From Escherichia phage EJP2, in sequence record OQ411014.1: 64,000 bases of DNA; one strand, given 5' to 3'. Below are positions 785 to 46,507 of the stretch, one piece after another. Below the pieces are notes generated by a model that saw only the letters and a list, made by a program, of their open reading frames with translations, was not told where the DNA came from and did not search any database. How positions within the stretch are numbered: the stretch's first letter is position 1; each line of letters begins with the position of its first letter. The position numbers and the translations under genes were made by a program.

Positions 785-1233
785 TGACGTTAGAAGAATT
801 ACTAAGTACTCATAAGTACTACATTGATGATGATAATAAAAATATTTCGGCTATCATTTCTATGTTGAATACAAAGTACAACCTACATGGTAAGTCCCCT
901 AAAGCTGACGAAATTTTGGAATCACCGAAGAAATTTTTGATGTACAATCCAAAAACAAAGTGCATTCGACTTGTTGACAAAAGTTACTTAGCACCAGAAA
1001 CAACATTTACGGATATCGTCCGTGTGTACACTGGATTGCCATTCACTATCAATCATTTATTCGTTGAGGTGTACAGTACTGGAAGTCCTAATTACTGGAA
1101 TTATGCAGTACATAAAGGTGATGTAACACGTTACTTCAAACTGACCAAACTCAATGCTTGGCTTGAAGAAGAATACGTTGATACATCTGAAATGATCAAA
1201 ATTGAAGATTCGTACATACAAAATGTGAGATAA
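784..1233 (+). CDS. hypothetical protein
   Basis: 149-aa ORF, start overlaps upstream stop. No recognisable motifs. Confidence 0.55.
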   Translation: MTLEELLSTHKYYIDDDNKNISAIISMLNTKYNLHGKSPKADEILESPKKFLMYNPKTKCIRLVDKSYLAPETTFTDIVRVYTGLPFTINHLFVEVYSTGSPNYWNYAVHKGDVTRYFKLTKLNAWLEEEYVDTSEMIKIEDSYIQNVR

Positions 1234-1254
1234 CGTCACAAAATGTGATATAAT
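1225..1254 (+). promoter_or_regulatory. early sigma70-type promoter (GTGAGA -35, TGn extended -10 TATAAT)
   Basis: -35 1225-1230, TG 1246-1247, TATAAT 1249-1254. Member of the TTGAGA-N18-TATAAT family. Confidence 0.45.
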
Positions 1255-1282
1255 GGAATAACACACTAAAGAAGGAAACTAT

Positions 1283-1426
1283 ATGAAACTACTCCGTAAT
1301 AGCTTATTTGCGTTTTACATGGATTATCAAATCTCGCTAAAACTAAATCCAGTACTGACAGTACTAGGAACAGCCACTGTTGCAGCTTTCACTGCATGGT
1401 TAGTTACACTGTTTTGTGCTCTATAA
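1283..1426 (+). CDS. putative small membrane protein (47 aa)
   Basis: ATG at 1283 follows an AAGAAGGAAAC RBS and the early-promoter motif at 1225-1254. C-terminal hydrophobic stretch VLTVLGTATVAAFTAWLVTLFCAL. Absent from the ORF track because it is under 60 aa. Confidence 0.4.
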   Translation: MKLLRNSLFAFYMDYQISLKLNPVLTVLGTATVAAFTAWLVTLFCAL

Positions 1427-1441
1427 TCTTAGGATAACAAA

Positions 1442-2071
1442 ATGACAACTCACGTTAGGTATTATATTGCATATAATGGAAGACCAGTTCGTTCTATTGG
1501 ATTAGATCTTGAGCCAGTAATGTCTGTACAGACTAATCTATACTTCAGTACTGAAGAAGAAGCAGACTCTTTCATTATGACTAGGATTGCAACTGCGTCC
1601 ACTACACTTTATCATATTCATTTTGATTGTATTGATAAGTACTCAATCGTCAAAGAAATTGTTCAGTTGGAACCGTGCAGTACTAAAACTAATTATATGC
1701 GAAACTATACTCTAACTTGGTTGCGATTACTCGACCAGGATATCTGTACTGATTCTATGATTTCCACTACTATACGTGCGTTCGTCATGCGTGGGTTTAG
1801 TACATCAGGATTGGATTTAGAAGAAGTGAAAAACTTGATTTTGGGTAATCCAAAACTTCAAAAAACCATTGACAAACTTATTCCAAAGCATATAATCTCT
1901 AATATTGAAAATTACATGCAAGATGGTTTAGTCAATGCTCCGGTGGAAGAGCTTGAATTCTTGAATCTAACAATTTCAGATGAAATGAAATTTGATCTTG
2001 ACTTCGAAGAACTCTTCCCTTACAATAAGTTCAAACCAACAAAATGGGAAAATCATGGAACTAGTAACTGA
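1442..2071 (+). CDS. hypothetical protein
   Basis: 209-aa ORF. No recognisable motifs. Confidence 0.6.
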   Translation: MTTHVRYYIAYNGRPVRSIGLDLEPVMSVQTNLYFSTEEEADSFIMTRIATASTTLYHIHFDCIDKYSIVKEIVQLEPCSTKTNYMRNYTLTWLRLLDQDICTDSMISTTIRAFVMRGFSTSGLDLEEVKNLILGNPKLQKTIDKLIPKHIISNIENYMQDGLVNAPVEELEFLNLTISDEMKFDLDFEELFPYNKFKPTKWENHGTSN

Positions 2072-3308
2072 AGGTCGCAAACTCGTAACAATTCGTAAAA
2101 TCAATGCAATTGATGCAATTGAAGGTGCAGATCTGATTGTCAAAGCAACTGTTGACGGTTGGGATGTAGTTGTGAAGAAAGATGAATTCAACGTTGGGGA
2201 TTACTGTGTATTCTTCGAAATCGATTCATTCCTTCCAGTACAGACACCACAATTCGCATTCTTGGCGGGTTCAGGCTGTAAACTCGATGAACAGAATGTA
2301 GAACGTTTCCGTCTACGTACTCGTAAACTTCGCGGGGTAGTCTCTCAAGGCTTGGCTCTACCAGTATCTCTATTTGAGGCAGTACTGGAAGCTATTGACG
2401 AAGCTGGTGGTCATCACCCTGACTCGTACACTACAACGGCACGTGAAGAACTCCTAGTGAGTCTAGAGGCGAATCGTGAAGGCATTGAGCAATTCCTCAA
2501 TGTAACCAAATACGAGCGTCCTGATGAGCGTAATGGCGGTACTGGTGCATCTAAGTGCAAAGCTGCTGGTAACTTCCCTATCGTCATTCCTAAGACTGAT
2601 GAAGACCGTATTCAGAACGTAATGGGTAAGTACTCTCAGACTATGAAAGGTGTTGCATTCCGTAAATCACTGAAACTGGATGGTTCTAGCCAGACAATTG
2701 CATTCATTAGCAATCCTGATTTCTTTGTAGATAAAGTTGATGAAGAAGTCCGTGCATGGAATGAAGAGACTCAAGAACTTGAAGTTGTTGAAGTGAAGCC
2801 ATACCCGTTCCAATGGGAAGATGGTCAGGTAGCAGTATGTTCTCGCAATCTTGCGTTGAAATTTGATGCTGAATCTCACTTCTGGAAAGCAGCACTGAAA
2901 GATGATATTCCAGCACGTCTGAAAGAGTACTGTGTTCGTAATGACCGCCAACTAGCACTACAAGGCGAAGTAATGGGTCCTGGTATCCAAGGGAACCGTG
3001 AAGAACTGACCGAACATCAATTCTACGTATTCCGTATTTGGGATATTGATAATAAATGTTTCCTTGATGATGGTGATTTCTTGACACTATCTGCACTACT
3101 GGGATTGACTACAGTACCGCAAGGTGATATCGTGTACTTCTTCGATGAATACACTTCTATCAAAGAAGCATTGGCATCTGCTGACCACGCATCTATCAAG
3201 CATAAGATCGCGGAAGGCGATGTGTTCAAAAGTGTATCTAAAGTGAATGGTGTTACTGTACACTTCAAGGTAATCAACAACAAATTCTTGCTCAAATGTG
3301 AGGACTAA
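2055..3308 (+). CDS. putative ATP-dependent RNA ligase (N-terminal OB-like domain plus nucleotidyltransferase domain)
   Basis: Covalent nucleotidyltransferase motif I KxDG (SLKLDGSS) and a motif-IV-like QGEVMG. N-terminal GADLIVKATVDGWDVVV...VGDYCVFFEIDSFLP resembles a tRNA-binding OB fold. Start moved from 1992 to ATG 2055, which has an RBS. Confidence 0.5.
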   Translation: MELVTEGRKLVTIRKINAIDAIEGADLIVKATVDGWDVVVKKDEFNVGDYCVFFEIDSFLPVQTPQFAFLAGSGCKLDEQNVERFRLRTRKLRGVVSQGLALPVSLFEAVLEAIDEAGGHHPDSYTTTAREELLVSLEANREGIEQFLNVTKYERPDERNGGTGASKCKAAGNFPIVIPKTDEDRIQNVMGKYSQTMKGVAFRKSLKLDGSSQTIAFISNPDFFVDKVDEEVRAWNEETQELEVVEVKPYPFQWEDGQVAVCSRNLALKFDAESHFWKAALKDDIPARLKEYCVRNDRQLALQGEVMGPGIQGNREELTEHQFYVFRIWDIDNKCFLDDGDFLTLSALLGLTTVPQGDIVYFFDEYTSIKEALASADHASIKHKIAEGDVFKSVSKVNGVTVHFKVINNKFLLKCED

Positions 3309-3916
3309 TGAAGAAAAAATTCGGCGTGGCGATAAATGACGCCGACTATGCTGTAACATCATATGACGATGCTGGTAAACGCCAGCATTGTCCCTTTTAT
3401 CGAAGATGGGCGAGTATGATAAATCGATGTTATGGTGATGTTGGTGCAACATACACTGAATCCTATGTATGTGATGAATGGTTAACCTTCTCTAACTTTA
3501 AGAGATGGATGGAAACACAAAAATGGGAAGGTATGGAGTTGGACAAAGATTTACTTTATATCAACAATAAGGAATATGGCCCAAATACATGTTTATTTTT
3601 ACCAAAGGTTATTAATTCACTATTCGTTGATAGTAAATCGAGCCGTGGTACTAATCCGATTGGTGTATCTTTTGAAAAACGTCGATTGAAATATGAAGCA
3701 TATATATCAATTGATAATAAGAAAAAACATCTTGGATATTTTGATAACCCAATTGATGCACATGTAAAATGGCAACATGCAAAATTGAAAGTATTGGAAG
3801 ATTTCATGAAAACGTTATCTGACCCTATACATATACAAATTGTAGATTTGCGAATCAACAAGCTAAAGAATGATATACAATCAAATATCATAACCGAATC
3901 TTTACATCATTTCTAA
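3308..3916 (+). CDS. AP2-domain protein, homing-endonuclease-like
   Basis: N-terminal YRRWASMINRCY...YVCDEWLTFSNFKRWM motif typical of phage free-standing endonuclease-like genes. C-terminal GVSFEKRRLKYEAYISIDNKKKHLGYFDNPIDAHVKW fits an AP2 DNA-binding domain. TAATG overlap with the upstream gene. Confidence 0.45.
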   Translation: MKKKFGVAINDADYAVTSYDDAGKRQHCPFYRRWASMINRCYGDVGATYTESYVCDEWLTFSNFKRWMETQKWEGMELDKDLLYINNKEYGPNTCLFLPKVINSLFVDSKSSRGTNPIGVSFEKRRLKYEAYISIDNKKKHLGYFDNPIDAHVKWQHAKLKVLEDFMKTLSDPIHIQIVDLRINKLKNDIQSNIITESLHHF

Positions 3917-3928
3917 AAAGGAAATAAT

Positions 3929-4123
3929 ATGATCAAAAAACGTCTAACTGTATATTGCAGTGGTGCACCTAATTTCTTTATCTATGGTGTAACAAAAGAT
4001 AATGAAACGTACAGCCTTATTGATAACCAGTACTGGATTCGTGCATCAAATGATTTGACACCTGCTGAAATTTCAGTAATGACTGTAGTTGAATCTGACT
4101 GTATGTATAACGTTCAAGAGTAA
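3929..4123 (+). CDS. hypothetical protein
   Basis: 64-aa ORF with AGGAAATAA-type RBS. Confidence 0.4.
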   Translation: MIKKRLTVYCSGAPNFFIYGVTKDNETYSLIDNQYWIRASNDLTPAEISVMTVVESDCMYNVQE

Positions 4124-4143
4124 ATAAAGTTGTATTGTTAGTA

Positions 4144-5200: not shown

Positions 5201-5216
5201 CAGAGAGGTGTTATAT

Positions 5217-9002: not shown

Positions 9003-9032
9003 TTGAGATATTTTCGAAAAAAGTGATATATT
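9003..9032 (+). promoter_or_regulatory. early promoter (TTGAGA -35, TGn TATATT)
   Basis: TTGAGA 9003-9008, TG 9024-9025, TATATT 9027-9032. Confidence 0.45.
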
Positions 9033-9064: not shown

Positions 9065-9742
9065 ATGCGATATACATGCGGGATAATATTTTATCGAAAC
9101 GGTCAGATACTTGTAGGTCACACGACTGGTCAGAGTCATTGGGATTTACCGAAAGGTAAGACTGAAGGTTCTGAGACATTCAAGGAAGCGGCAGTTCGTG
9201 AATGCTATGAAGAAACTGGATACAGTATTGATGAACGAGATTTACTGTACTTAGGTGATGTATCATACAGAAAGGGAAAGCGTTTAGTACTGTTCTTTTA
9301 CACAGCCAAGACGAAACCAATTGCTGAAGAGTTGCAATGTATCAGTACTTACACGAATAAGTACGGTATTGTACGTCCAGAGTTGGACAAATTCAAGTAC
9401 ATAGACATTGAGGACTGTGAACTCTACTTGACTGAACGGATGTGTGATAGTATAATCAAAGCTATTACACAATTTGATAAAAAGACAAATAAAAAGGAAG
9501 ATAATATGAAAGTTGTAATTTATGGTCGTAAAGCTGGTTGTAAGTGGTGTACTACTGCTAAAGAAGTTTGTGAAACTAACTCAATTGATTTTGATTTCAT
9601 TGATTTAGATGAAGCTGGTATTGATGGTGCTAAACTCGCTGAAATTTGTGGCACTCCAGTACGTACTGTTCCACAAATTTTCGTTGACGATCAACACATT
9701 GGTGGTTGTACTGAGTTTATTTCGCACCTATCCAAAATGTAA
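9065..9742 (+). CDS. Nudix hydrolase joined in-frame to a glutaredoxin-like domain
   Basis: Complete Nudix box GKTEGSETFKEAAVRECYEETGY. C-terminal 78 aa is glutaredoxin/NrdH-like (CKWC, TVPQIFVDDQHIGG) and has its own internal ATG at 9506 with an AAGGAAG RBS, but no stop separates the two domains. Confidence 0.7.
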   Translation: MRYTCGIIFYRNGQILVGHTTGQSHWDLPKGKTEGSETFKEAAVRECYEETGYSIDERDLLYLGDVSYRKGKRLVLFFYTAKTKPIAEELQCISTYTNKYGIVRPELDKFKYIDIEDCELYLTERMCDSIIKAITQFDKKTNKKEDNMKVVIYGRKAGCKWCTTAKEVCETNSIDFDFIDLDEAGIDGAKLAEICGTPVRTVPQIFVDDQHIGGCTEFISHLSKM

Positions 9743-23749: not shown

Positions 23750-24130
23750 ATGATGATGATACCGCCAACTGATCGTACTGACTCCCAGATGGAAGTACTT
23801 TCTAAAATACGGTCAGTACAAGTGGAAAAATCTGACTTAACCGACCGTTTAGTACTGAAGTCTATCTTTGAAAATTACAGATCCGGTTCGGGTATGAGAT
23901 TGAGTAAATTTGGTAAAGAGATGTGCATTGAGCATGAACTCTATGAGTTTGCTAAGTTTAATATCCCTAAAGGAACTAAGAAATCAGTACTGTTTATAAC
24001 GCTTGACAGATTATGCAAAGAGCCGTATTATGTAGAAGGTTTCGATGTGTTTCTGTCGGATGCACAAGTAATAACAGAACTGACATTTTGTTGTGATGAT
24101 TTTGAAAAATTGATTAAACTTTATTTGTGA
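23750..24130 (+). CDS. hypothetical protein
   Basis: 126-aa ORF. No recognisable motifs. Confidence 0.5.
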   Translation: MMMIPPTDRTDSQMEVLSKIRSVQVEKSDLTDRLVLKSIFENYRSGSGMRLSKFGKEMCIEHELYEFAKFNIPKGTKKSVLFITLDRLCKEPYYVEGFDVFLSDAQVITELTFCCDDFEKLIKLYL

Positions 24131-24154
24131 CAAACCAATAAAGTGTGATATAAT
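24125..24154 (+). promoter_or_regulatory. early promoter (TTGTGA -35, TGn TATAAT)
   Basis: TTGTGA 24125-24130, TG 24146-24147, TATAAT 24149-24154. Confidence 0.45.
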
Positions 24155-24301
24155 AGTTTTACAGTTTACAAGGCACTCTGATTTAAAATAAAATAAAATC
24201 AAAAGTGCCTTCTCTTTTGCCAAAATTTATGATACACTATAAATTCTGACAAAAGCATCTCACTAAAACGAGATGAGTTAAAAAAAGATTTAAAAAAGTG
24301 G

Positions 24302-24330
24302 TTGACAAGGCATTAAGAAGTACGTATAAT
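24302..24330 (+). promoter_or_regulatory. perfect-consensus sigma70 promoter
   Basis: TTGACA 24302-24307, exactly 17 bp, TATAAT 24325-24330. Upstream of the MoxR/VWA operon. Confidence 0.6.
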
Positions 24331-24448
24331 TAATCACATCAAGACGAGAACGTGATTGAACAAATGAGAAAAAGGACTTGACTCTACCAACGGATTTTGG
24401 TAAACTAAACAAACTTTACTTATCATCAATAAATGAGGAATCAATACT

Positions 24449-25780
24449 ATGTCTACTAACAACGACCTGCTGAACATCAAACTGTCCCCAAAACAAGCTA
24501 AAGCTGCTATGGAAGCTGCTGACCTGTGCCGCGATAGTCTGATGATTTGGGGTGCACCTGGTATCGGTAAATCCGCAATTGCACGTCAATACGCTGATGA
24601 GAAATATCCACTGCGTAAAGACAACGTTGGTCGTATCGCATCTCTGAACAATCGTATTGCTCAAGAAACTGATGCTGATGAGAAGAAAGCACTAGAACGT
24701 GAACTGGCTTCACTAGAATCCAAACTGATTGATCAAGATACCAACTTCATTGACTTCCGTCTGTCTCAGATTGAACCAACTGACTTACGTGGTATCCCAG
24801 TTCCAGAAAAACTGTTCCGTTCTACTAACGGTAACCTGTTGAAAGAATCTGAACTGGCTGAAGCGAAAGAGTACGTAGCTGAAACCGCAGTAACTTGGGC
24901 TGCTCCTAAAGTACTGAAACTGGCTGACGATTGGAAAGGTGTGATTCTGTTTGATGAAATCAACTCCGCAATGCCGATTGTACAAGCAGCGTCCTACCAG
25001 CTAATTCTGGACCGTTGTGTTGGTGAAATGAAACTACCATCTACTGCACTGATTCTTGCAGCAGGTAACCGTGACGGTGACGGCGGTGTAACTTTCACCC
25101 TAGCTACTCCACTGCGTGACCGTATGACTCACATTGAAGTCACTCCGAATCACACTGACTGGATTGATGACTATGCAATCAACAAGCGTCTGAACGCAGC
25201 GACTGTAGCATTCATCAACAACACTGGTAGCAAGTACTTCAACACGCTAGACCCGAACAACCCAAGCCATGCTGGTGGTACTTCTCCACGCTCTTGGGAA
25301 AAAGTAGCCGAGTACGAAGATCTGAATCAAAAAGGTCTGTTGACTAAAGAAATCTACCGTGCTATGATTGCTGGACGTGTTACCGATGGTATCGCAGTTG
25401 AGTACATCGAGTTTGTTGAGAACGTTGCATCTCTACCAGATACCATGAAGATTCTGACTGGTGAGATCAAAGAGATTGATAAAGACTTGGATATTTCTTC
25501 CAACTACTTCATCACTCTGAACCTAGTGTACAAGATTATCGCACTCTTCGAAGAGAAGAATGAGAAACGTCTAAGTGCAGAAGAGTGGAACCAAATGGCG
25601 AATAACTTCGTAGTGTTCCTAGACCACAACTTCTCTGCAACACAAGGTGAGTTGGCAGTACTAGCAATTCGTAACATTACTATCGCAGGTGTTACTATGT
25701 CTTACAACGATGTTCCAGCGTTCCAGCCGTTCGTAAAACGCTACATGGGTCTAGTTCGTAAAGCACGTGCACTGAAGTAA
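24449..25780 (+). CDS. MoxR/CbbQ-like AAA+ ATPase (AAA_5 type)
   Basis: Walker A IWGAPGIGKS and Walker B ILFDEINSAMP. GAGGAA RBS. Preceded by a perfect-consensus promoter. Confidence 0.8.
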   Translation: MSTNNDLLNIKLSPKQAKAAMEAADLCRDSLMIWGAPGIGKSAIARQYADEKYPLRKDNVGRIASLNNRIAQETDADEKKALERELASLESKLIDQDTNFIDFRLSQIEPTDLRGIPVPEKLFRSTNGNLLKESELAEAKEYVAETAVTWAAPKVLKLADDWKGVILFDEINSAMPIVQAASYQLILDRCVGEMKLPSTALILAAGNRDGDGGVTFTLATPLRDRMTHIEVTPNHTDWIDDYAINKRLNAATVAFINNTGSKYFNTLDPNNPSHAGGTSPRSWEKVAEYEDLNQKGLLTKEIYRAMIAGRVTDGIAVEYIEFVENVASLPDTMKILTGEIKEIDKDLDISSNYFITLNLVYKIIALFEEKNEKRLSAEEWNQMANNFVVFLDHNFSATQGELAVLAIRNITIAGVTMSYNDVPAFQPFVKRYMGLVRKARALK

Positions 25781-27253: not shown

Positions 27254-27261
27254 TATAAATA

Positions 27262-27298
27262 ATGCGTAAGTTCAGGATGTTCTTACGCATTTTATTTT
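27262..27298 (+). terminator. rho-independent terminator
   Basis: ATGCGTAAG ... CTTACGCAT stem followed by TTTTATTTT. Confidence 0.55.
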
Positions 27299-27326
27299 GA
27301 GATATCATAAGAAATTGTGATATAAT
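27297..27326 (+). promoter_or_regulatory. early promoter (TTGAGA -35, TGn TATAAT)
   Basis: TTGAGA 27297-27302, TG 27318-27319, TATAAT 27321-27326. Confidence 0.5.
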
Positions 27327-27358: not shown

Positions 27359-27589
27359 ATGAGTGAACAAAACCAAGAACAACTAAGCATTGAAATTGAA
27401 GATATCATCAATGCAACCAAAATCATGGAAGCAGCAATCAAAGCGGGTGCTTTCGGTGTTGAAGACTTAGTAAAAGTTGCACCAATTGTTGACCGTTTCA
27501 TCAAGTTCAGTAATGCAATTATTGAACAACACAACAAAAATGTTGAAGCTCAAGAAGCGGCACAAAATGGAGGTACTGACCATGAGTAA
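27359..27589 (+). CDS. hypothetical protein
   Basis: ATG at 27359 with GGAG RBS, downstream of the early promoter at 27297-27326. Confidence 0.45.
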   Translation: MSEQNQEQLSIEIEDIINATKIMEAAIKAGAFGVEDLVKVAPIVDRFIKFSNAIIEQHNKNVEAQEAAQNGGTDHE

Positions 27590-29107: not shown

Positions 29108-29373
29108 TGATGAGTGATGAGTGTGATAATTGCGATTACCGTTATGAATCAGGCCACAGAGACGGATATGAGCAAGGTTGTAAAGACTCCAGTTCGGAAA
29201 ATTACGAACAAGGTTATAAAGATGCAAAAGACGAAGGTGCTAGAGAATTAGATGATCAATTAGCGAACATGAGTTCGAACTTCTCTAGTGTAATACGAGA
29301 TTTAGTTGCAAGGAATAAGCAACTACAGCAAGAAATTTATGAGATAAGGAAATCCAATGCAACAGCTTCATGA
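29104..29373 (+). CDS. hypothetical protein
   Basis: ATGA overlap with the upstream gene. Internal YEQGxKD repeats. Confidence 0.45.
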   Translation: MMMSDECDNCDYRYESGHRDGYEQGCKDSSSENYEQGYKDAKDEGARELDDQLANMSSNFSSVIRDLVARNKQLQQEIYEIRKSNATAS

Positions 29374-30289
29374 TTTATATTCAAAAGTACTAAACGAAGG
29401 TGTCACATCAGAAGACCGTACTGGTACTGGTACTATCAAACTGATTGGTCAACAAATGCGTTTCGATTTGAAAGAAGGCTTCCCAGCGACAACAACGAAA
29501 CGTCTAGCATGGAAAGCAATGACTTCTGAACTGTTGTGGTTCCTCGAAGGTTCACAAAACGAACGTCGTTTATGTGAAATTCTACATGGTACTACTGACC
29601 CAGAGAAACGTACAATCTGGACTGGTAACTATGAGAATCAAGGACAGAAACTTGGATACGTCAATGGCAATCTCGGCCCTGTTTATGGTAAACAATGGCG
29701 TGAGTGGGAAGATGTAGTTATCCTTCCTGGTGTGTACACTGAAGTAGTAAAACATACTGAAATGGGTTACAATCTAGTTGAACGTACTACTAGTGGTATG
29801 TATGTAATGCAACGTACTATTGACCAGATTGCAGTACTGGTTGATGGTTTGAAGAATGATCCAAACGGTCGCCGCCACATCCTATCTGCATGGAACGTTG
29901 GTGATTTAGATAAGATGGCACTACCACCTTGTCATAGTTTTGTTCAGTTCTTTGTGGTTGATGGTAAGCTAAGTTGCTCACTATATCAACGCAGTGCAGA
30001 TCTCTTTTTAGGTGTACCATTCAATATTTCAAGTTATTCTCTACTAACTCATATGCTTGCACAAGTGTGTGGTTTGGATGTTGGTGAGTTCATTTGGAAT
30101 GGTGGTGACTGTCACATTTATCTAAACCACATCGACCAAGTTCGTGAACAATTGTCACGTGAACCAAAAGAATTACCACAATTGTGGTTGGATGAAAATA
30201 TTACTGATATTGATACATTTACAATGGATTCGTTCAAACTTCTGAACTACAATCCTGATTCAGTAATCAAAGCACCAATGGCAGTTTAA
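29357..30289 (+). CDS. thyA: thymidylate synthase
   Basis: RTGTGT...QMRFDL, ELLWFL and active-site PPCHSF ... LGVPFNISSYSLLTHM motifs. Confidence 0.9.
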   Translation: MQQLHDLYSKVLNEGVTSEDRTGTGTIKLIGQQMRFDLKEGFPATTTKRLAWKAMTSELLWFLEGSQNERRLCEILHGTTDPEKRTIWTGNYENQGQKLGYVNGNLGPVYGKQWREWEDVVILPGVYTEVVKHTEMGYNLVERTTSGMYVMQRTIDQIAVLVDGLKNDPNGRRHILSAWNVGDLDKMALPPCHSFVQFFVVDGKLSCSLYQRSADLFLGVPFNISSYSLLTHMLAQVCGLDVGEFIWNGGDCHIYLNHIDQVREQLSREPKELPQLWLDENITDIDTFTMDSFKLLNYNPDSVIKAPMAV

Positions 30290-32995: not shown

Positions 32996-35900
32996 TTATA
33001 CGTTACGTTGTGCAATAAACACGTCAATGGTAGAACCTACACCGCTGTATACTAACTGACAGATAGATACAGAGTTTGGAGTGGTGTTAATCGCAGTATC
33101 AGCACCAATCACACTATATGGAGGTGGTAGAGTTAGCGAGTGGTTACCAGTTGCGTCTTGTGTTACATATACGAACCAAGAACCTGCATATCCTGGGGTG
33201 ATTGGTAGGTTACCAACGGTAGTATCACCTGTTAGGGTAATGTTATACACGTTAGAAGTACCATCAGGAGTCCAAGTACCAGTTGCAGAAGCAGCCGGAG
33301 CAGCTTTAACTAGGTATTTGCTAGTACTTACCGATTCAGTTACTAGGTCGCCGATATCAGCAGTTAGTGTACCAGTTACTGTTAGGTTGTTAGCATTAAT
33401 TGTACCAGTACTATCAATATCAACAGCAGTTACTTTACCAGTGAAATCGGAGGTTCCAGATACAGTAAGGCTTGTAGCAGTGATTGCACCTGTGGTTACA
33501 GCAGCTAAGGTAGAAGTACCAGTTACTGTTAGAGTATCAGTTTCTAGACCGCCAGTAATTGCAGCACCATCAGCACTAACAGTTAGTTTACCACCAGTAG
33601 TTAGTGTAGTACCTACGCTCGCCGCAGCAGAGAAAGTAGCAGTACCAGTGCTGGATAGAGTACCAGTTACTGTGGTTGCACCAGTAATTGCAGCACCATC
33701 AGCACTAACAGTTAGTTTACCACCAGTAGTTAGTGTAGTACCAACTGTTGCAGCACCAGTAACTTCAAGAGTTACACCTTTCAAGAAGGAAGTGGAAGTA
33801 ACAGATTGTGCAACTAGATCAGAAGTACTTTGGTCTAGTGTACCAATGATACGACCATTAACAGTAAAGTCACCAGTACAAACTGCGTTACCGTTAAGCT
33901 GTAGGTTGTTGTTTACAGAACCACTTGCACCGATAACAGCAGAGTCAATTGTTGCTTGACCTTTAACTTCGAGTGTAGTACCAACAGATACCGCTTGGGA
34001 AGTTGTTACAGACCGTGGAGAAATATCACGACCAGTTAAGTCGATTTGAGCAGTGATAGTACCATCAACATCCAAGTTACCTGTGATGTGGGTGTTACCA
34101 GAAATCTCAGCAATATATTCTTCTTCGTCCCATACTAGAGTACCTACGTGTAGGTTTGTGGTAGAGGTCTTCTTGAAAGAAGCGGTTGCAGTTGCAGCAC
34201 CGTTCTGTGCGATATTACCAGCAGTTACTGTTAGGTCACCAGTAGTAATTGTTGCACCGTTATCAGAAGTTACAGAACCAAATTTACCTGCACCTGAAGC
34301 AGTGATTGCACCACCTAGGGTTGTTGCACCAGTAGTTACGGTTAGACCGTTATCAGAGGTTACAGAACCAAATTTACCTGCACCAGTACTGGTTAGAGTA
34401 CCACCAACAGTTGTGTTGCCAGTTACACCTAGTGTAGTACCAACAGTTGCACCAGCAGCAGTAGAAACACTATTAACAGATAGGTCAGCACCCGCGAGGT
34501 TTAGACCACCAGCAGGAGTGAATGTACCATTAACGGTCATGTCACCAGTTGCTACCGTGTTACCTGTGATATCTAGTGATGCTAGAGTTGCTTTACCTGA
34601 AGTACTTAGAGTACTAACAGATGTTGCATCAGCAGTTACATCAGCTAGGGTAGATGCACCAGTTACATTTAGTGTAGTACCGATATTTGCACTGTTTAGA
34701 GTTGCTAGACCAGAAGTACTTACAGTACTTAGGGAAGTATTACCAGATACACCTAGGGTTGTAGTAACGCTTGCAGCGTTCGCATTGACAGTTCCTAGAG
34801 TAGATACGCCAGTTACTTCTAGAGTAGTGTTAACTTTAGCACCGTTTAGTGTTGCCAAACCAGTAGTCGTTAGTGCATCAGTAGTTACATCAGCTAGGGT
34901 AGATGCACCAGTTACATTTAGAGAACCACCAACAGTTGTGTCGTTAGTACTGGATAGTGTTAGTGCACTTAGGTTAGTTGCACTTAGGTCGAATTGACCA
35001 TCAACAGTCAAATCACCAGTTACATGAGCGTTACCGAGAGAGTTAAGAGACTTAACAGTTACATCAGTTGTGCTTAGGTCGATTGCTCCAGCAGTTAGTG
35101 TACCAGTTGCATGGAAATCACCAGTTACGTTGGTAGATTTAGCAAGTTGTACAGTAGTTCCAGCAGTTGTAAAGGAAGCAGCAGATACAGCACCAGTTGC
35201 GGATACAGATGAAGCACCAATTGCACCAGCAGTTACACCAGCAAGAGTAGTTTCACCAGTTACTGCTAGAGTACCAGAAGCAGTTACATCAGCCAGGGTT
35301 GAAGCGGCAGATACAGTTACAGCACCTAGAGTTGCTTCGTCGCTTGCTAATTTAGGGAATGTATTTGTTTTAGCAGCATCAGTAGATACAAAACTTAAAG
35401 CAGTTACATCAGCACCAGATAAGTCAACAGTACCAGATACAGCTAGGTTGCCACCGATTGTTGCACCTTCAGTAGTCGTAATAGACTTGGAAGCAATATC
35501 AACAGAAGATAGGTCAAAACCACCAACTGGGGTAAATGTCCCATTAACTGTTAGGTTTTTATCAGCAACAACATCACTTGCTAGAGTTACTGTGCCAGCA
35601 CCAAGTGGAGCAGCTTGAACAGTTGCGGATTCTACCGAAGCACCTTTAACAATACCAGTTGCAGTAATGTTTGTTGCAGAGATATCACCAATGGATTCAA
35701 TACCGCCATTAGGCTTGAAAGAACCAGTTACAGTTAAGTCTTTTGCAGCGACTGCATTACTTGCCAATGTTACTGTACCAGCACCAGCAGCAGCACCTTG
35801 AATAGATGGAACAGTTGCAGTTGCAGCACTTACATCACCAGTTGCAGCGAAAGATACAGCACTGATATCACCAGTTGCATCAATATCACCAGCATTTACA

Positions 35901-38605
35901 GTACCAGCAGTGATGGTAGTACTAGATAGAGTTGGGATGGTGCTTTGTGCAACAGTTGCAGTAATAGATTTAACATTAATATCCGCAGCACTTAGGTCGA
36001 ATGTACCGTCAACAACAAGGTTTCCACCAACGTTTACGTTACCTGTAGTGGTTACAGATGCAGCATCAACAGCAGTAGTACTTAGGTCAATTGAAGCTGG
36101 GGTTAGAACACCAGAAATAGTTACGTCATTTGCAAAAGTGGTATTACCAGTAATGCTTGGAACAACTAATGAATCAGCAGTTACTGAAGCTAATGTTGAA
36201 GCACCAGTTACGCTTAGAGATGCAGCAGATGCAGCACCGATTGCAGAAGCACCAGTTACATTTAGAGAACCACCATTAACTTCACCAGTTGCAGTGACAG
36301 AAGCAGCAGTTACAGCACCAGTTGCCGCGACAGATTCAGCAGAAACGCCAGCAGTTGCTACAACAGAGTTCGGTGCGATATCAAGACCGTCAACGTTTGC
36401 AGCAGCAGTTACACCAGTAGTAGTACCAGTTACAACTAGGTCTTTAACAGTTACAGTTTGACCATTAACAGTTACGTTACCACCAATTGTTGCACCAGCA
36501 GTTGCAGTGATTTCACCTGTTACGCCTAGAGTACCACCAACAGTTGCGTTGCCAGTTACAGCAGCGTTACCACCTACAGATAGATCAGTACCAACAGTAG
36601 TGGTGGTTACAGATTCTAGAGTATTACCATTAAGGGCAGCAGTTGCTACAACAGAGTTAGGTGTTAGGTCTTGACCACTAACATCAACAGTTAGACCAGT
36701 TACAACACCAGTAAATTCAACATCAGCAAGAATTGATTTACCATCAACTTTTAGTTGTGGTTGTGCAGTACCGATAGTACTGTTACCTTGGATGTGAACA
36801 TAATCCATAGTGGATTTGCCTAGTGCAGTTAGACCAGCAGTACCACCAACGTTACCAACAGATGCGTTCTGTAGTAGTGCTTTATCAGCTACAAGGTCAG
36901 AAGTTGCGATTTTGTATGGTTCGATGCTGGATTTGGTGTCGCTTGGGCGAGCCGGATCGTTATATGCAAATTGTAAAATACCGTGGTTACCAGATTCGCC
37001 ATCAATAACGTTTAGAGTACTAAAGTTAGCGATTGAAGTTCTTGCACCAGTTAAGTTACCAGATAGAGTTAGGTTTTGTAGAGTACTTGGACCAGAAACA
37101 TTTAGAGATGTTGCATTAATATCAGTAAATGAAAGACCAGATACTGCACCAGTAATAATCAAATCACCAACTGTGGTTTTTTGTAGTACTGTATCACCAG
37201 TTACTTCTAGTTTTGGTGTTGCTTCACCAATAGTACTGTTACCAGTAATGCTTAGGTAATCAATAGTTGCTTTACCTAGTGCTTTTAGACCAGCAGTACC
37301 TGCTACATCACCAACTTCAGCAGCTTTAAGAACAGCTTTGTCAGCTACTAGATCAGAAGTTGCCATTTTGTATGGTTCGATACTTGATTTTGTGTCATTT
37401 GGACGAAGTGTGTCATTATAAGCGAATTGTACAATGCCGTGGTTTCCAGCAGTACCGTCATCAACAGTAAAAGTACTGAAGCGTGCTACTGAAGAGTTAC
37501 CACCAGTTAGGTTGCCACTCATGTTAACGCCAGCTAGAGTTGATGCACCAGATACGTTTAGAGTTGCTACGTTTAGGTCAGTGAATGAAAGACCAGATAC
37601 TGCACCAGTAATTGTTAGGTTACGAACTGTAGTATCTTGTAGTACTGATTTACCAGTTACTTCTAGGAAGTTATCAGCAGTACCAATAGTACTGTTACCA
37701 GCAATTTTTAGGTAATCGATTTTTGCATTACCGAGAGCGTGTAGACCGTGGTCATCGCCACCACCAACAACACCAACGGTTGCTACGTCAGTTTGGATAT
37801 CGTTGGTATCAATTTCTTGAGTACTAACTTTGTACGGCTCAAGGCTAGTTTTGATATCAGAAGGACGTAGTGGGTCGTTATATGTGAACTGAACACTACC
37901 AGTTTGACCGGAAACACGATATTGGTTTACGGATACAGTACTGTTTGCACCAGTTACGTTACCTTGGATAGTAGTTGCACCTTTAATGTTTACGTTGTTA
38001 AGATCACTTAGTGTTTTAACTTCGATGTTATTGAAAGTACCAGCATCCATAGTGTAAGTGCCACTTAGAGTACCATTGATTTCCACATCACCTAGTGTTG
38101 TTTTGCCAGTTACGTCTAGAGTACTGTCAAGTACTGCTGCACCTTTAGCATGTAGGGCTTCAGTAGTTGTACTACCTAGAGCTACAGTACTAGTTGGTTC
38201 AGTAGAAAGATTGCCATTAACTTTTGCATTACCAGATACGGTTAGGCTATCAGCAGAAGTTTCTTTAAATGAAGCACTACCAGTAGTTTGAGTAATATTT
38301 GAATTAAAAGTTGCTTCGGCATCAACAGCCAAAGTACCTTTAACACTTACTGTATCAGTTAGAGCGTCACCAAGAACGGTATTACCAGATACGTTAAGAT
38401 TTCCGAGATTAGAAGTACCAGTACTTGTAATGTCAGCGAATTGAGCAGAACCCGTCACTGTGATAGCAGTGAATGTGGCATCTGCGAAAGAAACAGTGCC
38501 TTCTACAGAAAGATTTTGCTTGAATACAGCATTACCCTTCAATAGTAGGTCTTTGTCAATCGTTGCTCCACCGAGAACGCCTAGATCAGTTTTAATTGAA
38601 TACAT
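32996..38605 (-). CDS. giant repetitive tail fiber protein (1869 aa)
   Basis: GGAGGG RBS. Long runs of VTG/SGN/ATG beta-helix-like repeats and three ~150-aa tandem repeat units. Confidence 0.7.
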   Translation of the reverse strand: MYSIKTDLGVLGGATIDKDLLLKGNAVFKQNLSVEGTVSFADATFTAITVTGSAQFADITSTGTSNLGNLNVSGNTVLGDALTDTVSVKGTLAVDAEATFNSNITQTTGSASFKETSADSLTVSGNAKVNGNLSTEPTSTVALGSTTTEALHAKGAAVLDSTLDVTGKTTLGDVEINGTLSGTYTMDAGTFNNIEVKTLSDLNNVNIKGATTIQGNVTGANSTVSVNQYRVSGQTGSVQFTYNDPLRPSDIKTSLEPYKVSTQEIDTNDIQTDVATVGVVGGGDDHGLHALGNAKIDYLKIAGNSTIGTADNFLEVTGKSVLQDTTVRNLTITGAVSGLSFTDLNVATLNVSGASTLAGVNMSGNLTGGNSSVARFSTFTVDDGTAGNHGIVQFAYNDTLRPNDTKSSIEPYKMATSDLVADKAVLKAAEVGDVAGTAGLKALGKATIDYLSITGNSTIGEATPKLEVTGDTVLQKTTVGDLIITGAVSGLSFTDINATSLNVSGPSTLQNLTLSGNLTGARTSIANFSTLNVIDGESGNHGILQFAYNDPARPSDTKSSIEPYKIATSDLVADKALLQNASVGNVGGTAGLTALGKSTMDYVHIQGNSTIGTAQPQLKVDGKSILADVEFTGVVTGLTVDVSGQDLTPNSVVATAALNGNTLESVTTTTVGTDLSVGGNAAVTGNATVGGTLGVTGEITATAGATIGGNVTVNGQTVTVKDLVVTGTTTGVTAAANVDGLDIAPNSVVATAGVSAESVAATGAVTAASVTATGEVNGGSLNVTGASAIGAASAASLSVTGASTLASVTADSLVVPSITGNTTFANDVTISGVLTPASIDLSTTAVDAASVTTTGNVNVGGNLVVDGTFDLSAADINVKSITATVAQSTIPTLSSTTITAGTVNAGDIDATGDISAVSFAATGDVSAATATVPSIQGAAAGAGTVTLASNAVAAKDLTVTGSFKPNGGIESIGDISATNITATGIVKGASVESATVQAAPLGAGTVTLASDVVADKNLTVNGTFTPVGGFDLSSVDIASKSITTTEGATIGGNLAVSGTVDLSGADVTALSFVSTDAAKTNTFPKLASDEATLGAVTVSAASTLADVTASGTLAVTGETTLAGVTAGAIGASSVSATGAVSAASFTTAGTTVQLAKSTNVTGDFHATGTLTAGAIDLSTTDVTVKSLNSLGNAHVTGDLTVDGQFDLSATNLSALTLSSTNDTTVGGSLNVTGASTLADVTTDALTTTGLATLNGAKVNTTLEVTGVSTLGTVNANAASVTTTLGVSGNTSLSTVSTSGLATLNSANIGTTLNVTGASTLADVTADATSVSTLSTSGKATLASLDITGNTVATGDMTVNGTFTPAGGLNLAGADLSVNSVSTAAGATVGTTLGVTGNTTVGGTLTSTGAGKFGSVTSDNGLTVTTGATTLGGAITASGAGKFGSVTSDNGATITTGDLTVTAGNIAQNGAATATASFKKTSTTNLHVGTLVWDEEEYIAEISGNTHITGNLDVDGTITAQIDLTGRDISPRSVTTSQAVSVGTTLEVKGQATIDSAVIGASGSVNNNLQLNGNAVCTGDFTVNGRIIGTLDQSTSDLVAQSVTSTSFLKGVTLEVTGAATVGTTLTTGGKLTVSADGAAITGATTVTGTLSSTGTATFSAAASVGTTLTTGGKLTVSADGAAITGGLETDTLTVTGTSTLAAVTTGAITATSLTVSGTSDFTGKVTAVDIDSTGTINANNLTVTGTLTADIGDLVTESVSTSKYLVKAAPAASATGTWTPDGTSNVYNITLTGDTTVGNLPITPGYAGSWFVYVTQDATGNHSLTLPPPYSVIGADTAINTTPNSVSICQLVYSGVGSTIDVFIAQRNV
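33552..33742. repeat. 62-bp exact direct repeat pair within the fiber gene
   Basis: Identical 62-mers at 33552-33613 and 33681-33742, encoding duplicated SVGTTLTTGGKLTVSADGAAITG. Confidence 0.65.
34257..34383. repeat. near-exact direct repeat of about 37 bp within the fiber gene
   Basis: CGTTATCAGARGTTACAGAACCAAATTTACCTGCACC occurs at about 34257 and 34347, encoding GAGKFGSVTSDNG twice. Confidence 0.55.
36560..37950. repeat. three tandem ~450-bp repeat units inside the giant fiber gene
   Basis: Encoded segments (I/S)VQF(T/A)YND..RP(S/N)D.K(T/S)S(L/I)EPYK ... IDYL.I.GNSTIG recur three times. The nucleotide similarity is visible but diverged. Confidence 0.6.
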
Positions 38606-43079: not shown

Positions 43080-43083
43080 TACA

Positions 43084-43587: not shown

Positions 43588-43589
43588 CC

Positions 43590-44930
43590 TTATGTGTTTC
43601 TAAAGCCAATCCTCCAATACCCTTGTCTATATTTGTTCATAATGGCCTTGTGCCAGCCAAACTTTGTGGTATACTTATACATTCCACTATCACTTGAGTT
43701 ATAAACATAATCAGTAATACTTGCTGGAGGGATAAGTTCAATACCTTGAGAAGTTATTCGAACAATATATTCAGGTGGGATACGATTATCCTTGTAGAAA
43801 ATATCACGTTCTGATATATTTACATAATATTGCTCCGGTATAGCTCCATTTAACTCTTGACTTTCAGTGACGAAAGCAACAATTGCCAATTGACGCTTCA
43901 TTAGTGAGTTATCAACTTCAACAATAATCTTATTCGCGGTATCATCAGAACCAATACTCAGTACTGTACCTTTGATTGCGGATGTGTCTTCAATTCCTCG
44001 TTGGAATTTGATGAACATTTCCTTCTTATCGAAGCTCGGTTCCAAATATTTGAGGTATATAGGCCATGAGAAGATTTTGTTATTGGCACTCAGCTTGTTA
44101 AGAGATGAATTCACAAGTGTTAGCTCATATTTTGACGTGGATGCACCTGGCTGTGTGATTTCATCCACCAATATACACATGTTTTTCGGTGTGAAGACAT
44201 CAACAATCGGTTCAGACCAGTTAGTTAGTTCAATATCGAGTTCGTCTTTCGCGTTATGCACGTTAGTAACGATTTGACTAATGAGTTTTGGTTTTTCAAC
44301 TGTTCCTGGAAGAGAAAACCACACAGTACTTTTGAATGATAAGGTCATTATGTCCATATCAGTGTCTGTGCCTTGTGGCATAGCACGAGAACTGAACTGA
44401 CAATCAATCAATTCAACATCAGTTGCTGAAGTCCAGTCTAATGGGTTCTCCGAAAGCTGTAAAGTTATCGATGGACTGAATAAAGTTGTGATTTGTTCGA
44501 ACAATTCCATTTTATTAGTTAATGTAGTTGTCCAAATGTTCAAATCAAACACAAATGTCCACGGAACAGGGTTGTATCTGGTAATCAAGTACTGTTCATC
44601 CAGTTCTTTTGTGTACTCGTTCTGTGCAGGGGACTTATTAGTCCCCATAATCACCTGTTCAGCCACTGGTGAGCGAATAGAATTGCGTTCCATCTTCAAT
44701 GACTGTACACTTATAGTCATCATTGGAGCAGTTGGTACTGTGTTTTCTGAACCTCCACTGATAATATACGCAGCTAAACGTGAAATATCAGCGTATCTGC
44801 AAGGTACACCACGATAAACTGGTAGACCTGCATCGTCAATTGAGTGTAGTACTTTGAAATCACCAAAAACTCTTATTAAGTGTTTCAGTACTCGTCTGAA
44901 TTGACCGTCATAATAATATTCTACTTTCAT
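43590..44930 (-). CDS. virion structural protein (baseplate or tail associated)
   Basis: 446-aa ORF with AAGGAA RBS in the structural operon. Function not recognised. Confidence 0.5.
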   Translation of the reverse strand: MKVEYYYDGQFRRVLKHLIRVFGDFKVLHSIDDAGLPVYRGVPCRYADISRLAAYIISGGSENTVPTAPMMTISVQSLKMERNSIRSPVAEQVIMGTNKSPAQNEYTKELDEQYLITRYNPVPWTFVFDLNIWTTTLTNKMELFEQITTLFSPSITLQLSENPLDWTSATDVELIDCQFSSRAMPQGTDTDMDIMTLSFKSTVWFSLPGTVEKPKLISQIVTNVHNAKDELDIELTNWSEPIVDVFTPKNMCILVDEITQPGASTSKYELTLVNSSLNKLSANNKIFSWPIYLKYLEPSFDKKEMFIKFQRGIEDTSAIKGTVLSIGSDDTANKIIVEVDNSLMKRQLAIVAFVTESQELNGAIPEQYYVNISERDIFYKDNRIPPEYIVRITSQGIELIPPASITDYVYNSSDSGMYKYTTKFGWHKAIMNKYRQGYWRIGFRNT

Positions 44931-44938
44931 GTTGTTCC

Positions 44939-46435
44939 TTATTTCTTATGAACACGGTAAACAATGTTCGGTTTAACTGCATCTTCCAACGGTACTCTGT
45001 TTGGACTATTAACAAAATCAGTTTTAGCTTTATCTGCACCAACCCACGGCTGACGACCGCCATAATCAAATATAGCCCATGATTTCTTATCGTCTGAGTA
45101 CTCCCAAAGCGTAACTGGGGTGTAATCAGTACGGTAAAAGTACTCACCATCAACTGGATTGCTTGGGAATTCAGTACCTTCACCTACAGTTCCTCTAGCT
45201 GGTGGAATCTTAGGTCTAGAGTCCGCAGAAAGAGTGATGTCGGCAGCAATACTACCTGAAGTGAATGGTACGTTGCTATGTTCATCAGGTGGAATCACCC
45301 ATGTAACACCATCATCCAGTACTTGATATAATTGTGGTTCAGCGTATAATACATAGAAGTCACCAGCGTCATTAGGTACACTTTCACCGGACTTAACGTA
45401 CGGTAAATCACAGTTCAACCATTTCTTGACATCTTTATCGTACTGATATAAAGTATATCCACTGACATCTGCTTCTTGCTCTTTAAAAAAGAAATCTCCG
45501 TCACTCGGTCTGCGAGGGAATGTGGTTCCGTACTTAACTTGGACTTCATCCCAGCTAGAATTCTCGAACTCCATCAGTACTGGATATGTTTTCTTAATGT
45601 AGAACATATTTGCTGAAGGTTTTTCAGGGAAATCATATCCACTTAAGATAACTCTTGACAGTTCCCATATATCTGATCTATCATTATATATGTGCTCATT
45701 AGTCCAGTGCATGTATGGCACTTCATCATCGGCTTGGATAATGATTTTGTTCATAATATCCATTTCGTTGTTGTAGTTACTGTTTTCACTACCACCATTA
45801 TTACCACTTGAGTTACCATTTCCGTTATTCGGATCATCTGGGTCATCTGGGAAGTTGTTATTGTCTAGGATTCCAGAATATTCAGGACTATCGGTTAGTG
45901 GTTTAACACGAAGTTTGAAAATATGGTGTTGCCATGTGACGGAGTAACCTTCGGATGTTCTAAACGCATCTTGAACGACATAGAAACGGTTCAAACCTGA
46001 ATCTTTTCCTATAACGTCAAAATCGCGTAAGTTAGGAAGTTCGATGACATCGCCTGGAATAATTTTTCTTCCCACGCGTTGCATCATTGTGTTATAATGG
46101 ATTGTAATGTCCATAGTGTTAAAGTTGAAGAAAATCCCTGGCATTTTTAAGTCAGGAGTTGCTTCTTGAATTTGGTACACTGCACTAAGTGTTATAGCTT
46201 CTAAGTTATATTCACGTTGTGCTGATTCACCGAAGATAATGTCACCGATACTAGAAATATCTAGTTGACCATCTCCGGTTTGTAGTGTACCATCATCATT
46301 AGTTGCTAATTGTTTTGGACCAACATAAGCGTACAGCCACATATCAACACCACCGATATTGTACTGTTCGGCAATGTTGCGGTCGATGAAACTATAATCA
46401 TTAGTTCGACCTTTTTTCCACATTTTGTATGCCAT
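44939..46435 (-). CDS. virion structural protein
   Basis: ATG at 46435 with TGGAGA RBS; the ORF track starts at 46492. First gene of the leftward operon. Confidence 0.5.
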   Translation of the reverse strand: MAYKMWKKGRTNDYSFIDRNIAEQYNIGGVDMWLYAYVGPKQLATNDDGTLQTGDGQLDISSIGDIIFGESAQREYNLEAITLSAVYQIQEATPDLKMPGIFFNFNTMDITIHYNTMMQRVGRKIIPGDVIELPNLRDFDVIGKDSGLNRFYVVQDAFRTSEGYSVTWQHHIFKLRVKPLTDSPEYSGILDNNNFPDDPDDPNNGNGNSSGNNGGSENSNYNNEMDIMNKIIIQADDEVPYMHWTNEHIYNDRSDIWELSRVILSGYDFPEKPSANMFYIKKTYPVLMEFENSSWDEVQVKYGTTFPRRPSDGDFFFKEQEADVSGYTLYQYDKDVKKWLNCDLPYVKSGESVPNDAGDFYVLYAEPQLYQVLDDGVTWVIPPDEHSNVPFTSGSIAADITLSADSRPKIPPARGTVGEGTEFPSNPVDGEYFYRTDYTPVTLWEYSDDKKSWAIFDYGGRQPWVGADKAKTDFVNSPNRVPLEDAVKPNIVYRVHKK

Positions 46436-46477
46436 TTTGAATCTCCAAAAAGAAATCGTATAAATGTATTTATTTTT

Positions 46478-46507
46478 TTGAGACAAATGCAAAAGATGTG
46501 ATATAAT
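46478..46507 (+). promoter_or_regulatory. early promoter (TTGAGA -35, TGn TATAAT)
   Basis: TTGAGA 46478-46483, TG 46499-46500, TATAAT 46502-46507. Upstream of the ClpA-like gene. Confidence 0.5.

Follow-up and report, generated by a model that had tools for sequence, protein, structure and literature searches.

The five promoter sites of the window

The sequence analyzed is a stretch of 64,000 nucleotides (nt) from Escherichia phage EJP2 (sequence record OQ411014.1), called here the window, and the elements studied are five promoter-like sites on its plus strand. A sequence-only reading had proposed them as a phage-specific class of early promoters with an extended -10 and a TTGAGA-like -35 hexamer. 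When the sequence was read directly, all five were found on the plus strand where they had been placed; the scores given with them come from the weight matrix described below.

Site 1, 1225-1254, plus strand: GTGAGA-N18-TATAAT, full sequence GTGAGATAACGTCACAAAATGTGATATAAT, 26.2 bits
Site 2, 9003-9032, plus strand: TTGAGA-N18-TATATT, full sequence TTGAGATATTTTCGAAAAAAGTGATATATT, 18.5 bits
Site 3, 24125-24154, plus strand: TTGTGA-N18-TATAAT, full sequence TTGTGACAAACCAATAAAGTGTGATATAAT, 22.5 bits
Site 4, 27297-27326, plus strand: TTGAGA-N18-TATAAT, full sequence TTGAGATATCATAAGAAATTGTGATATAAT, 25.7 bits
Site 5, 46478-46507, plus strand: TTGAGA-N18-TATAAT, full sequence TTGAGACAAATGCAAAAGATGTGATATAAT, 28.4 bits

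Every site stands upstream of a plus-strand gene or operon, as had been claimed, at 28-47 nt from the start codon or, for the ATPase leader behind site 3, at 294 nt. Site 1, whose core TGAGAT-N17-TATAAT spans 1226-1254, is followed by the gene of a small protein of 47 amino acids with a hydrophobic C-terminus (ATG at 1283) and by further genes. Site 2 begins 2 nt past the stop codon of the tRNA nucleotidyltransferase gene, and the ATG of the Nudix-glutaredoxin gene (9065) lies 32 nt downstream. The box of site 3, TGTGAC, is a variant, and GTGACA-N16 is an alternative reading of it. Site 4 lies 32 nt before the ATG at 27359, which begins the first gene of an operon ending in a DprA-like gene and the thymidylate synthase gene (29357-30289). 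Site 5 precedes a ClpA/B-like AAA+ gene (46555-48840) by 47 nt, in a divergent intergenic region. Pfam and PHROGs agreed with the previous gene calls for the Nudix-glutaredoxin fusion, the ClpA/B-like ATPase and the operon from 27359 that ends in ThyA, but 'MoxR' could be narrowed only to a generic phage ATPase family.

With their -10 hexamers aligned, the sites read (T/G)TG(A/T)GA(T/C)A, then a spacer that turns A-rich, then (T)GTGATATAAT. Their common core of 29 base pairs (bp) is TG(A/T)GA(T/C)-N17-TATAAT with an invariant (T)GTGA extended -10, and it exceeds the length given for it earlier. TGA lies directly 5' of the -10 hexamer at all five sites, and the upstream hexamers with their next base are TGAGAT(A) at three, TGAGAC(A) at one and TGTGAC(A) at one. 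GTGATATAAT occurs exactly four times on the plus strand and never on the minus strand of the window, the remaining fifth site having GTGATATATT; TGNTATAAT was counted eight times on the plus strand and not at all on the minus strand. The TTGAGA hexamer at 18 bp, the geometry first proposed, is indeed present, but it is TGRRAY, 17 bp from TATAAT, that keeps its register from genome to genome. Likewise, the non-canonical G of TTGAGA, formerly assigned to position 4, is at position 5.

The pattern TTGAGA-N17-19-TATAAT matched the window twice against 0.06 expected. TGRRAY-N14-TGNTATAWT gave four exact matches and one with a single mismatch, precisely the five sites, and with up to one mismatch 0.88 matches were expected by chance. 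Additionally, a weight matrix was built only from 18 published sites of phage CBB and four sites of phage Hallingskeid, two relatives described below, and from no window sites. With this matrix the five sites ranked 1 to 5 among the ~128,000 window positions on both strands, scoring 18.5-28.4 bits, and the next best positions reached 13.5 and 9.6 bits. Given this margin, the list of five is complete for the window. A generic sigma70 consensus scan of the window found no excess over shuffled sequences (74 vs 70, 51 vs 51, 73 vs 70); therefore, matches to the consensus alone are weak evidence and only the specific motif is informative. Motif statistics and conservation support the proposal of a phage-specific promoter class with an extended -10 and a non-canonical -35-like hexamer, and the five sites are predicted to be genuine, conserved promoters.

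A promoter class of Rak2-like jumbo phages

By Megablast, the window belongs with the Rak2/GAP32/CBB/121Q-like jumbo myoviruses, whose genomes are of ~350 kb. The best match was Erwinia phage Hallingskeid, at ~77% identity with only part of the query covered. In IMG/VR, an exact search with a 44-mer from site 5 gave no match. Synteny with Hallingskeid, 121Q, RaK2 and CBB extends over the whole window, and the shared order comprises tRNA nucleotidyltransferase, Nudix, tail sheath and tubes, ATPase, DUF2201/VWA and the thymidylate synthase operon, followed by minus-strand tail genes, the ClpA-like ATPase and a giant structural protein.

Three promoter classes derived with MEME have been described in Pectobacterium phage vB_PcaM_CBB (Buttimer et al. 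2017, PMC5259590). One class, RpoD-like with TTGACA and an UP-like element, is concentrated in a region of small open reading frames (ORFs) that the authors took as early (PMC5259590). 'Promoter 1', also called 'divergent RpoD-like', combines a classic -10 with TGAAACG in place of the -35, is found in Cronobacter phage GAP32 as well, and mostly precedes DNA-synthesis genes and the gene of a gp55-like sigma factor (PMC5259590). 'Promoter 3' is the T4-late-like ATAAATA motif before structural genes (PMC5259590). Table S6 of that paper contains 18 'Promoter 1' sites of 29 bp each, such as TGAAACGTACCAAAATTTTATGGTATAAT (PMC5259590).

The window sites, for example TGAGATATCATAAGAAATTGTGATATAAT, align without gaps to these 18 sites. 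All five have the geometry of the GAP32 and CBB class, a TG-initial hexamer exactly 17 bp from TATAAT, together with its extended -10 and A/T-rich distal spacer, an A-rich run lying before each -10. Positions and gene associations are the same too. Site 2 corresponds to the published CBB site Porf_193 (108,832-108,860), at the same position between the tRNA nucleotidyltransferase and Nudix genes, site 4 to Porf_218 (127,475-127,503), after the DUF2201 gene, and site 5 to Porf_235 (145,858-145,886), before ClpA. The CBB consensus TGAAACG itself was not found at the window sites, which have a variant box within TGRRAY. The class is already on record as a prediction for GAP32 and CBB, and the window adds a member with a variant box. 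To this the present analysis contributes orthologous positions in four genera, a genome-wide separation of three promoter classes in Hallingskeid, and a concerted, lineage-specific drift of the -35-like box.

Positional orthologues of all five window sites were located in Hallingskeid, where they read TGGGAT or TGAGAT-N17-TATAAT:

Site 1: Hallingskeid L009 2006-2034, TGGGATACGTCCCAAAAATGTGATATAAT
Site 2: Hallingskeid L001 4297-4325; 121Q L003 6186-6214
Site 3: Hallingskeid L001 19822-19850; in CBB TGAAACG..TTGTGGTATAAT, absent from the published CBB list; in 121Q and RaK2 canonical TTGACA promoters
Site 4: Hallingskeid L001 22859-22887; 121Q L003 25199-25227
Site 5: Hallingskeid L001 40887-40915; in 121Q TTGTAGACA and in RaK2 TTGACA

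GTGGGAC boxes are found at two of the orthologous positions in 121Q; at other positions 121Q and RaK2 have more canonical boxes, TTGACA or TTGAAC.

Genome-wide distribution and three promoter classes in Hallingskeid

A search of the complete Hallingskeid genome with the strict pattern found 29 sites against ~0.1 expected, all on the gene strand and most of them 8-77 nt before a start codon or the 5' end of a tRNA. They precede the topoisomerase II gene, the DHFR/RNase H/Dda helicase genes, those of primase and DnaB helicase, SSB (two tandem sites), exonucleases, a block containing clamp-loader genes, two tRNA clusters (tRNA-Ser/Arg) and the gene of a gp55-like 'sigma factor for late transcription', as well as the Nudix, ATPase, thymidylate synthase and ClpA units. 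Identical copies, TGGGATAAGTACTGAAAATGTGATATAAT, lie at L006 10740-10768 and 22672-22700, each 8 nt before a tRNA-Ser gene; therefore, the class also appears to drive phage tRNA clusters. At L007 2000-2028, L009 2006-2034 and L009 39253-39281 the promoter ends only 4-10 nt before the annotated start, so these starts are either mis-annotated or belong to leaderless or nearly leaderless mRNAs.

None of the 29 sites lies in positions 1-46 kb of the Hallingskeid record, a run of small hypothetical ORFs. This end of the genome has a class of its own, TTGACA-N16-TATAAT with a spacer ending in ..CAGTACTG, and AGTACTGTATAAT is found there in 16 copies and nowhere else in the genome. CAGTACTG, the palindrome that closes the spacer of this early class, contains AGTACT, and the class is very uniform (L004, record positions 0.9-20 kb). 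A search of L004 for TTGAC-N17-TATAAT gave nine matches, 4/9 on the strand opposite to the annotated genes. As a counterpart of this class the window has only a near match, at 24302-24330.

The third class is represented in the window by (A/C)TAAATA motifs, which match 'Promoter 3' of CBB and precede tail-sheath, tail-tube, tail-fibre and giant structural genes on both strands:

Plus strand, 16-66 nt before the start codon: (A/C)TAAATA motifs upstream of 11668, 13286, 16052, 16820, 19765 and 40855
Minus strand, 16-66 nt before the start codon: (A/C)TAAATA motifs upstream of 32245, 38605, 40748, 58908, 62480 and 63430

Both by location in the genome and by the functions of the genes that follow, the three promoter classes are thus distinct.

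The -35-like box is conserved and changes by lineage

In Hallingskeid, positions T1, G2, A5, Y6 and R7 of the box are the same in 29/29 sites and G4 in 28/29, and T-17, G-16 and A-13 are nearly invariant. Judged from the sequences, this box is conserved far past the needs of sigma70. It reads TG(A>G)AAC in CBB, TG(G>A)GAT in Hallingskeid and TGAGA(T>C) in the window, and the shift is concerted over unlinked sites. At position 4, Hallingskeid and CBB differ with p = 4e-12 (Fisher), and G in 5/5 window sites stands against A in 18/18 CBB sites (p = 3e-5); at position 3 the difference between window and Hallingskeid has p = 0.003 (Fisher). Over the same lineages the box of the early class is unchanged, TTGACA in CBB and Hallingskeid alike, and region 4 of sigma70 is well conserved among these enterobacterial hosts. 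Therefore, a reader encoded by the phage is indicated.

Positions 10-12 of the Hallingskeid 29-mers prefer TCC, giving a partial dyad GGAT-NN-ATCC centred near -28.5. It is perfect in 3/29 sites, against 0.22 in shuffled sequences, and has at least three of the four pairs in 14/29. A 'CC' right half is confined to sites with G at position 3 (10/22, vs 0/7 with A). The dyad may be the binding site of a dimeric factor, although its signal is weak; as it is not evident in the window or CBB, it was set aside as a feature of the class and kept only as a lead. At site 1, 1223-1240 reads TGTGA-N7-TCACA, which resembles a CRP site with a spacing of 7 rather than 6 bp, and the Hallingskeid orthologue has a perfect 5-bp inverted repeat, TGGGA-TACG-TCCCA. 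A CRP-like palindrome was dropped as a general feature because it is present at only one site.

Timing of the class

The sites had been called early. This label is doubtful because the class is excluded from the small-ORF end, which holds the canonical TTGACA class, and because it drives a T4-like set of middle or delayed-early genes that includes the late sigma gene. Immediate-early promoters would have TTGACA at 16-17 bp and lie in the small-ORF region, and none of the five sites has TTGACA. The authors of the CBB study likewise separate a canonical early class from the divergent one (PMC5259590). In PA5oct, the one related jumbo phage with RNA-seq data, the early transcripts are those of small uncharacterised ORFs, DNA-metabolism genes follow no sooner than 15 min, and growth is sensitive to rifampicin. 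From this indirect evidence, it is more likely that the five sites form a pre-late class, middle or delayed-early, than an immediate-early one. Some activity driven by sigma70 from time zero is possible, given the perfect TGnTATAAT.

The factor that may read the box

An RpoD-like sigma factor is encoded in every clade examined. In it Pfam recognizes regions 2 and 3 and, weakly, region 4, and with 41% identity between the Hallingskeid and CBB proteins it is fast-evolving. In the region 4.2 helix the phage sigma differs from Escherichia coli RpoD at E585, R588 and Q589. Its gene lies behind a TTGACA-type promoter in Hallingskeid and an RpoD-like promoter in CBB. Jumbo phages of group 2 have been inferred to recruit the host polymerase by their own sigma factors (Iyer et al. 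2021).

Since there are three promoter classes and the phages have two sigmas, parsimony assigns the early class to sigma70, the TGRRAY class to the RpoD-like sigma and the ATAAATA class to the gp55-like sigma. The host sigma70 holoenzyme would first read the TTGACA early promoters of the small-ORF end, where the RpoD-like sigma gene also lies. This sigma, on the host core polymerase, would then read the TGRRAY/extended -10 class and turn on replication and nucleotide-metabolism genes, tRNAs, chaperone-like ATPases and the gp55-like late sigma gene, whose product would in turn read the ATAAATA late promoters. The TGRRAY sites would thereby start non-structural genes scattered among late structural genes. 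That the five sites are read by the RpoD-like sigma as a genome-wide pre-late class is put forward tentatively, its chance of being right being judged somewhat below even. A broader formulation, to which nearly even chances are given, is that TGRRAY is the -35 element of either the RpoD-like sigma of the clade or a new activator, and that its dialect has co-evolved with that fast-evolving factor while the -10 half stayed locked to the host. If this holds, the clade would be a natural series for the drift of sigma region 4 specificity, and a new mechanism of middle transcription would exist in T4-related jumbo phages without MotA. Both the timing and the identity of the reading factor are inferences of the present analysis. 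The modified host RNA polymerase suggested in the sequence-only reading is possible, and a phage-encoded RpoD-like sigma is at least as likely.

Several observations weigh against assigning the class to the phage sigma. The TGnTATAAT half of the motif is the sigma70 optimum, so the sigma70 holoenzyme should start here without a -35 element. In the phage sigma W433 and W434 are replaced, and E458, which contacts the TG, is V in all four phages, so that reading of TGTGATATAAT by this protein is not predicted by homology. A match between region 4.2 residues and the -35 dialects was also tried: the position of R588 is S in CBB and H in Hallingskeid and 121Q, which fits AA vs GG. RaK2, with H at 588 and yet GAAC/GACA boxes, does not fit, and no simple correspondence emerged. 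Moreover, the canonical TTGACA at part of the orthologous positions of RaK2 and 121Q blurs the boundary of the class, the sigma gene of the phage itself lies outside the 64-kb window, and no transcription-start or time-course data were found in the literature for GAP32, CBB, 121Q or RaK2-like phages.

The same residues favour an arrangement like that of T4 middle transcription, since the phage sigma has lost W433, W434 and E458 yet the -10 half is optimal. Sigma70 would be kept on the extended -10, its region 4 blocked or remodelled by a phage factor so that early and host -35-dependent promoters are shut off, and an activator, possibly a dimer, would read the box at -35 to -24 (TGGGAT..ATCC / TGAGAY). 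The -10 half with its TG is exactly the best target of sigma70, and the phage sigma has no residue corresponding to E458 for the TG contact. The early class has a canonical -35 and no TG at -15/-14, the TGRRAY class the reverse, and inhibition of the AsiA type in T4 discriminates between just these architectures. In Hallingskeid the box also reaches past the hexamer (R7 in 29/29, TCC at 10-12 and the partial dyad). However, neither AsiA nor MotA is annotated among the 675 coding sequences of Hallingskeid, MotA itself not having been searched for. Thirty evenly spread rows of the 1169 tblastn matches of T4 AsiA contained no record of ~350 kb, only genomes of about T4 size (136-200 kb) or small fragments. 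The box does not resemble that of MotA, the dyad, itself weak, is not evident in window or CBB sites, and the conserved RpoD-like sigma would be left without a promoter class. Such an appropriation of sigma70 is considered less likely than reading by the phage sigma.

It is likewise doubtful that the sites are simply early promoters of the host sigma70 holoenzyme, unmodified or only covalently modified, with TTGAGA at 18 bp as a slightly degenerate and nearly dispensable -35. TTGAGA agrees with TTGACA in five of six positions, TGnTATAAT is optimal, RaK2 and 121Q can have canonical TTGACA at the orthologous positions, and T4 early promoters also pair a non-canonical -35 with an extended -10. 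This account does not fit the absence of the class from the small-ORF end, with its separate canonical class, nor the bases foreign to sigma70 (GGAT or GAGAY) that are fixed over dozens of unlinked sites and shift in concert, unlike a dispensable -35. The conserved G-16 and A-13 exceed what sigma70 needs, and the gene set is that of T4-like middle genes, late sigma gene included. It is very improbable that the sites are not promoters at all but a repeat that arose by chance or a cis element of another kind, for instance a signal for replication, packaging or recombination. The generic sigma70-like scan, not enriched over shuffles, would agree with this; against it stand the strict restriction to the coding strand, the fixed short distance before start codons or tRNA 5' ends, often right after terminators, the perfect -10 geometry, and a spacing that at least four phage genera keep at intergenic positions orthologous to one another.

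Elements adjoining the five sites

Further elements were located next to sites 3, 4 and 5:

24170-24219, plus strand: terminator-like hairpin with a U-rich tail in the ATPase leader, -14.2 kcal/mol, z = -3.35
24302-24330, plus strand: second promoter, canonical TTGACA-N17-TATAAT, between this hairpin and the ATPase ATG at 24449
27262-27290, plus strand: hairpin ATGCGTAAG / CTTACGCAT with a T run leading into site 4, read from the sequence
46466-46473, minus strand: T4-late-like motif ATAAATAC, abutting site 5 and facing a minus-strand virion structural gene

The leader hairpin begins ~10 nt after the predicted transcription start of site 3 and follows the promoter within some 10-20 nt. It is kept in Hallingskeid, 121Q, RaK2 and CBB, with one compensatory change of a stem pair, and is terminator Torf215 in the list of the CBB authors (PMC5259590). 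Searched at gathering thresholds, the whole window had no Rfam match, nor had 24100-24460 at E <= 1. Site 3 and the hairpin may produce a transcript of ~55 nt (a small RNA) or form an attenuator; a small RNA from the corresponding RaK2 unit would be up to ~150 nt long. The promoter-hairpin unit is common to five phages: the window phage (24125-24449), Hallingskeid (L001 19822-19990), 121Q (L003 22020-22330), and CBB and RaK2 (between them L015 30850-31160 and L017 17050-17195).

The hairpin at 27262-27290 is likely, from its sequence, the terminator of the upstream ATPase-DUF2201 unit, and in the Hallingskeid and 121Q orthologues of site 4 a hairpin and T run also lie directly before the promoter. 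An exact TATAAATA was seen at 27254-27261, directly after the DUF2201 stop codon and just before this hairpin. The back-to-back arrangement of a late motif and site 5 is found in CBB too (Porf_234 / Porf_235).

Behind site 2, the Nudix and glutaredoxin domains are fused in one ORF of 225 amino acids (9065-9742), and Hallingskeid has a gene of similar length. In 121Q and CBB there are two adjoining genes, and RaK2 is alike, with its second ORF annotated as glutaredoxin-similar only. On the minus strand, the ORF of 3344 amino acids at 48874-58908 occupies the syntenic position of the giant 'virion structural protein' in the relatives, the one of 1869 amino acids at 32996-38605 is a tail-fibre homologue, and bidirectional terminator hairpins lie at 48847-48872 and 58938-58961.

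Comparison with known promoter systems

These results yield a promoter map of three classes, canonical early, TGRRAY/extended -10 and ATAAATA late, for a group of ~350-kb phages that has received little study. In new Rak2-like genomes, transcription units and their likely temporal classes can be annotated with the 29-bp pattern. New here is the concerted, lineage-specific change of the -35-like box next to host-type early promoters that do not vary, and this argues for a specificity factor encoded by the phage. Orthology, class partition and box drift together make the question of the reader directly testable.

The closest known system is 'Promoter 1' of CBB. Both have the same 29-bp geometry, an extended -10 (RTGn), an A/T-rich distal spacer, gene-strand orientation and ties to DNA-synthesis genes and the gp55-like sigma gene. 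They differ in the hexamer, TGAGA(T/C) in the window and TGAAAC(G) in CBB, and in position -13, fixed as A in the window (GTGATATAAT) and variable in CBB; the CBB and GAP32 class is known as a MEME prediction.

T4 middle promoters also have a -10 of the sigma70 type, often extended, with the -35 replaced by a phage-specific box, and drive replication, nucleotide-metabolism and late sigma genes between the sigma70 early and the gp55-type late (TATAAATA-like) classes. The MotA box has the consensus (a/t)(a/t)TGCTT(t/c)A and is centred at -30. The five window sites have TGAGAY at -35 to -30 and no TGCTT at -30, so that the TGRRAY box of this class differs from the T4 box in both sequence and position. 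Moreover, the Rak2-like phages carry an RpoD-like sigma and T4 does not.

In the phage systems with factors of the sigma70 family (SPO1 gp28, phiEco32 gp36 and 7-11 gp47; PMC8948821) an early phage sigma redirects the host core to a phage-specific class, as is proposed for the Rak2-like phages, and the promoters of phage 7-11 are bipartite with a 16-bp spacing (PMC8948821). There, however, both elements depart from the host consensus, whereas in the window class only the -35 half does so and the -10 half is the host optimum. The sequence feature of bacterial extended -10 sigma70 promoters, TG at -15/-14 beside a TATAAT-like hexamer, is present at all five window sites, and such promoters similarly combine this TG and a consensus TATAAT with a weak or non-canonical -35. 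The window class differs from them in having a lineage-specific hexamer that is not of the sigma70 type, together with T-17, G-16 and A-13, kept over dozens of sites.

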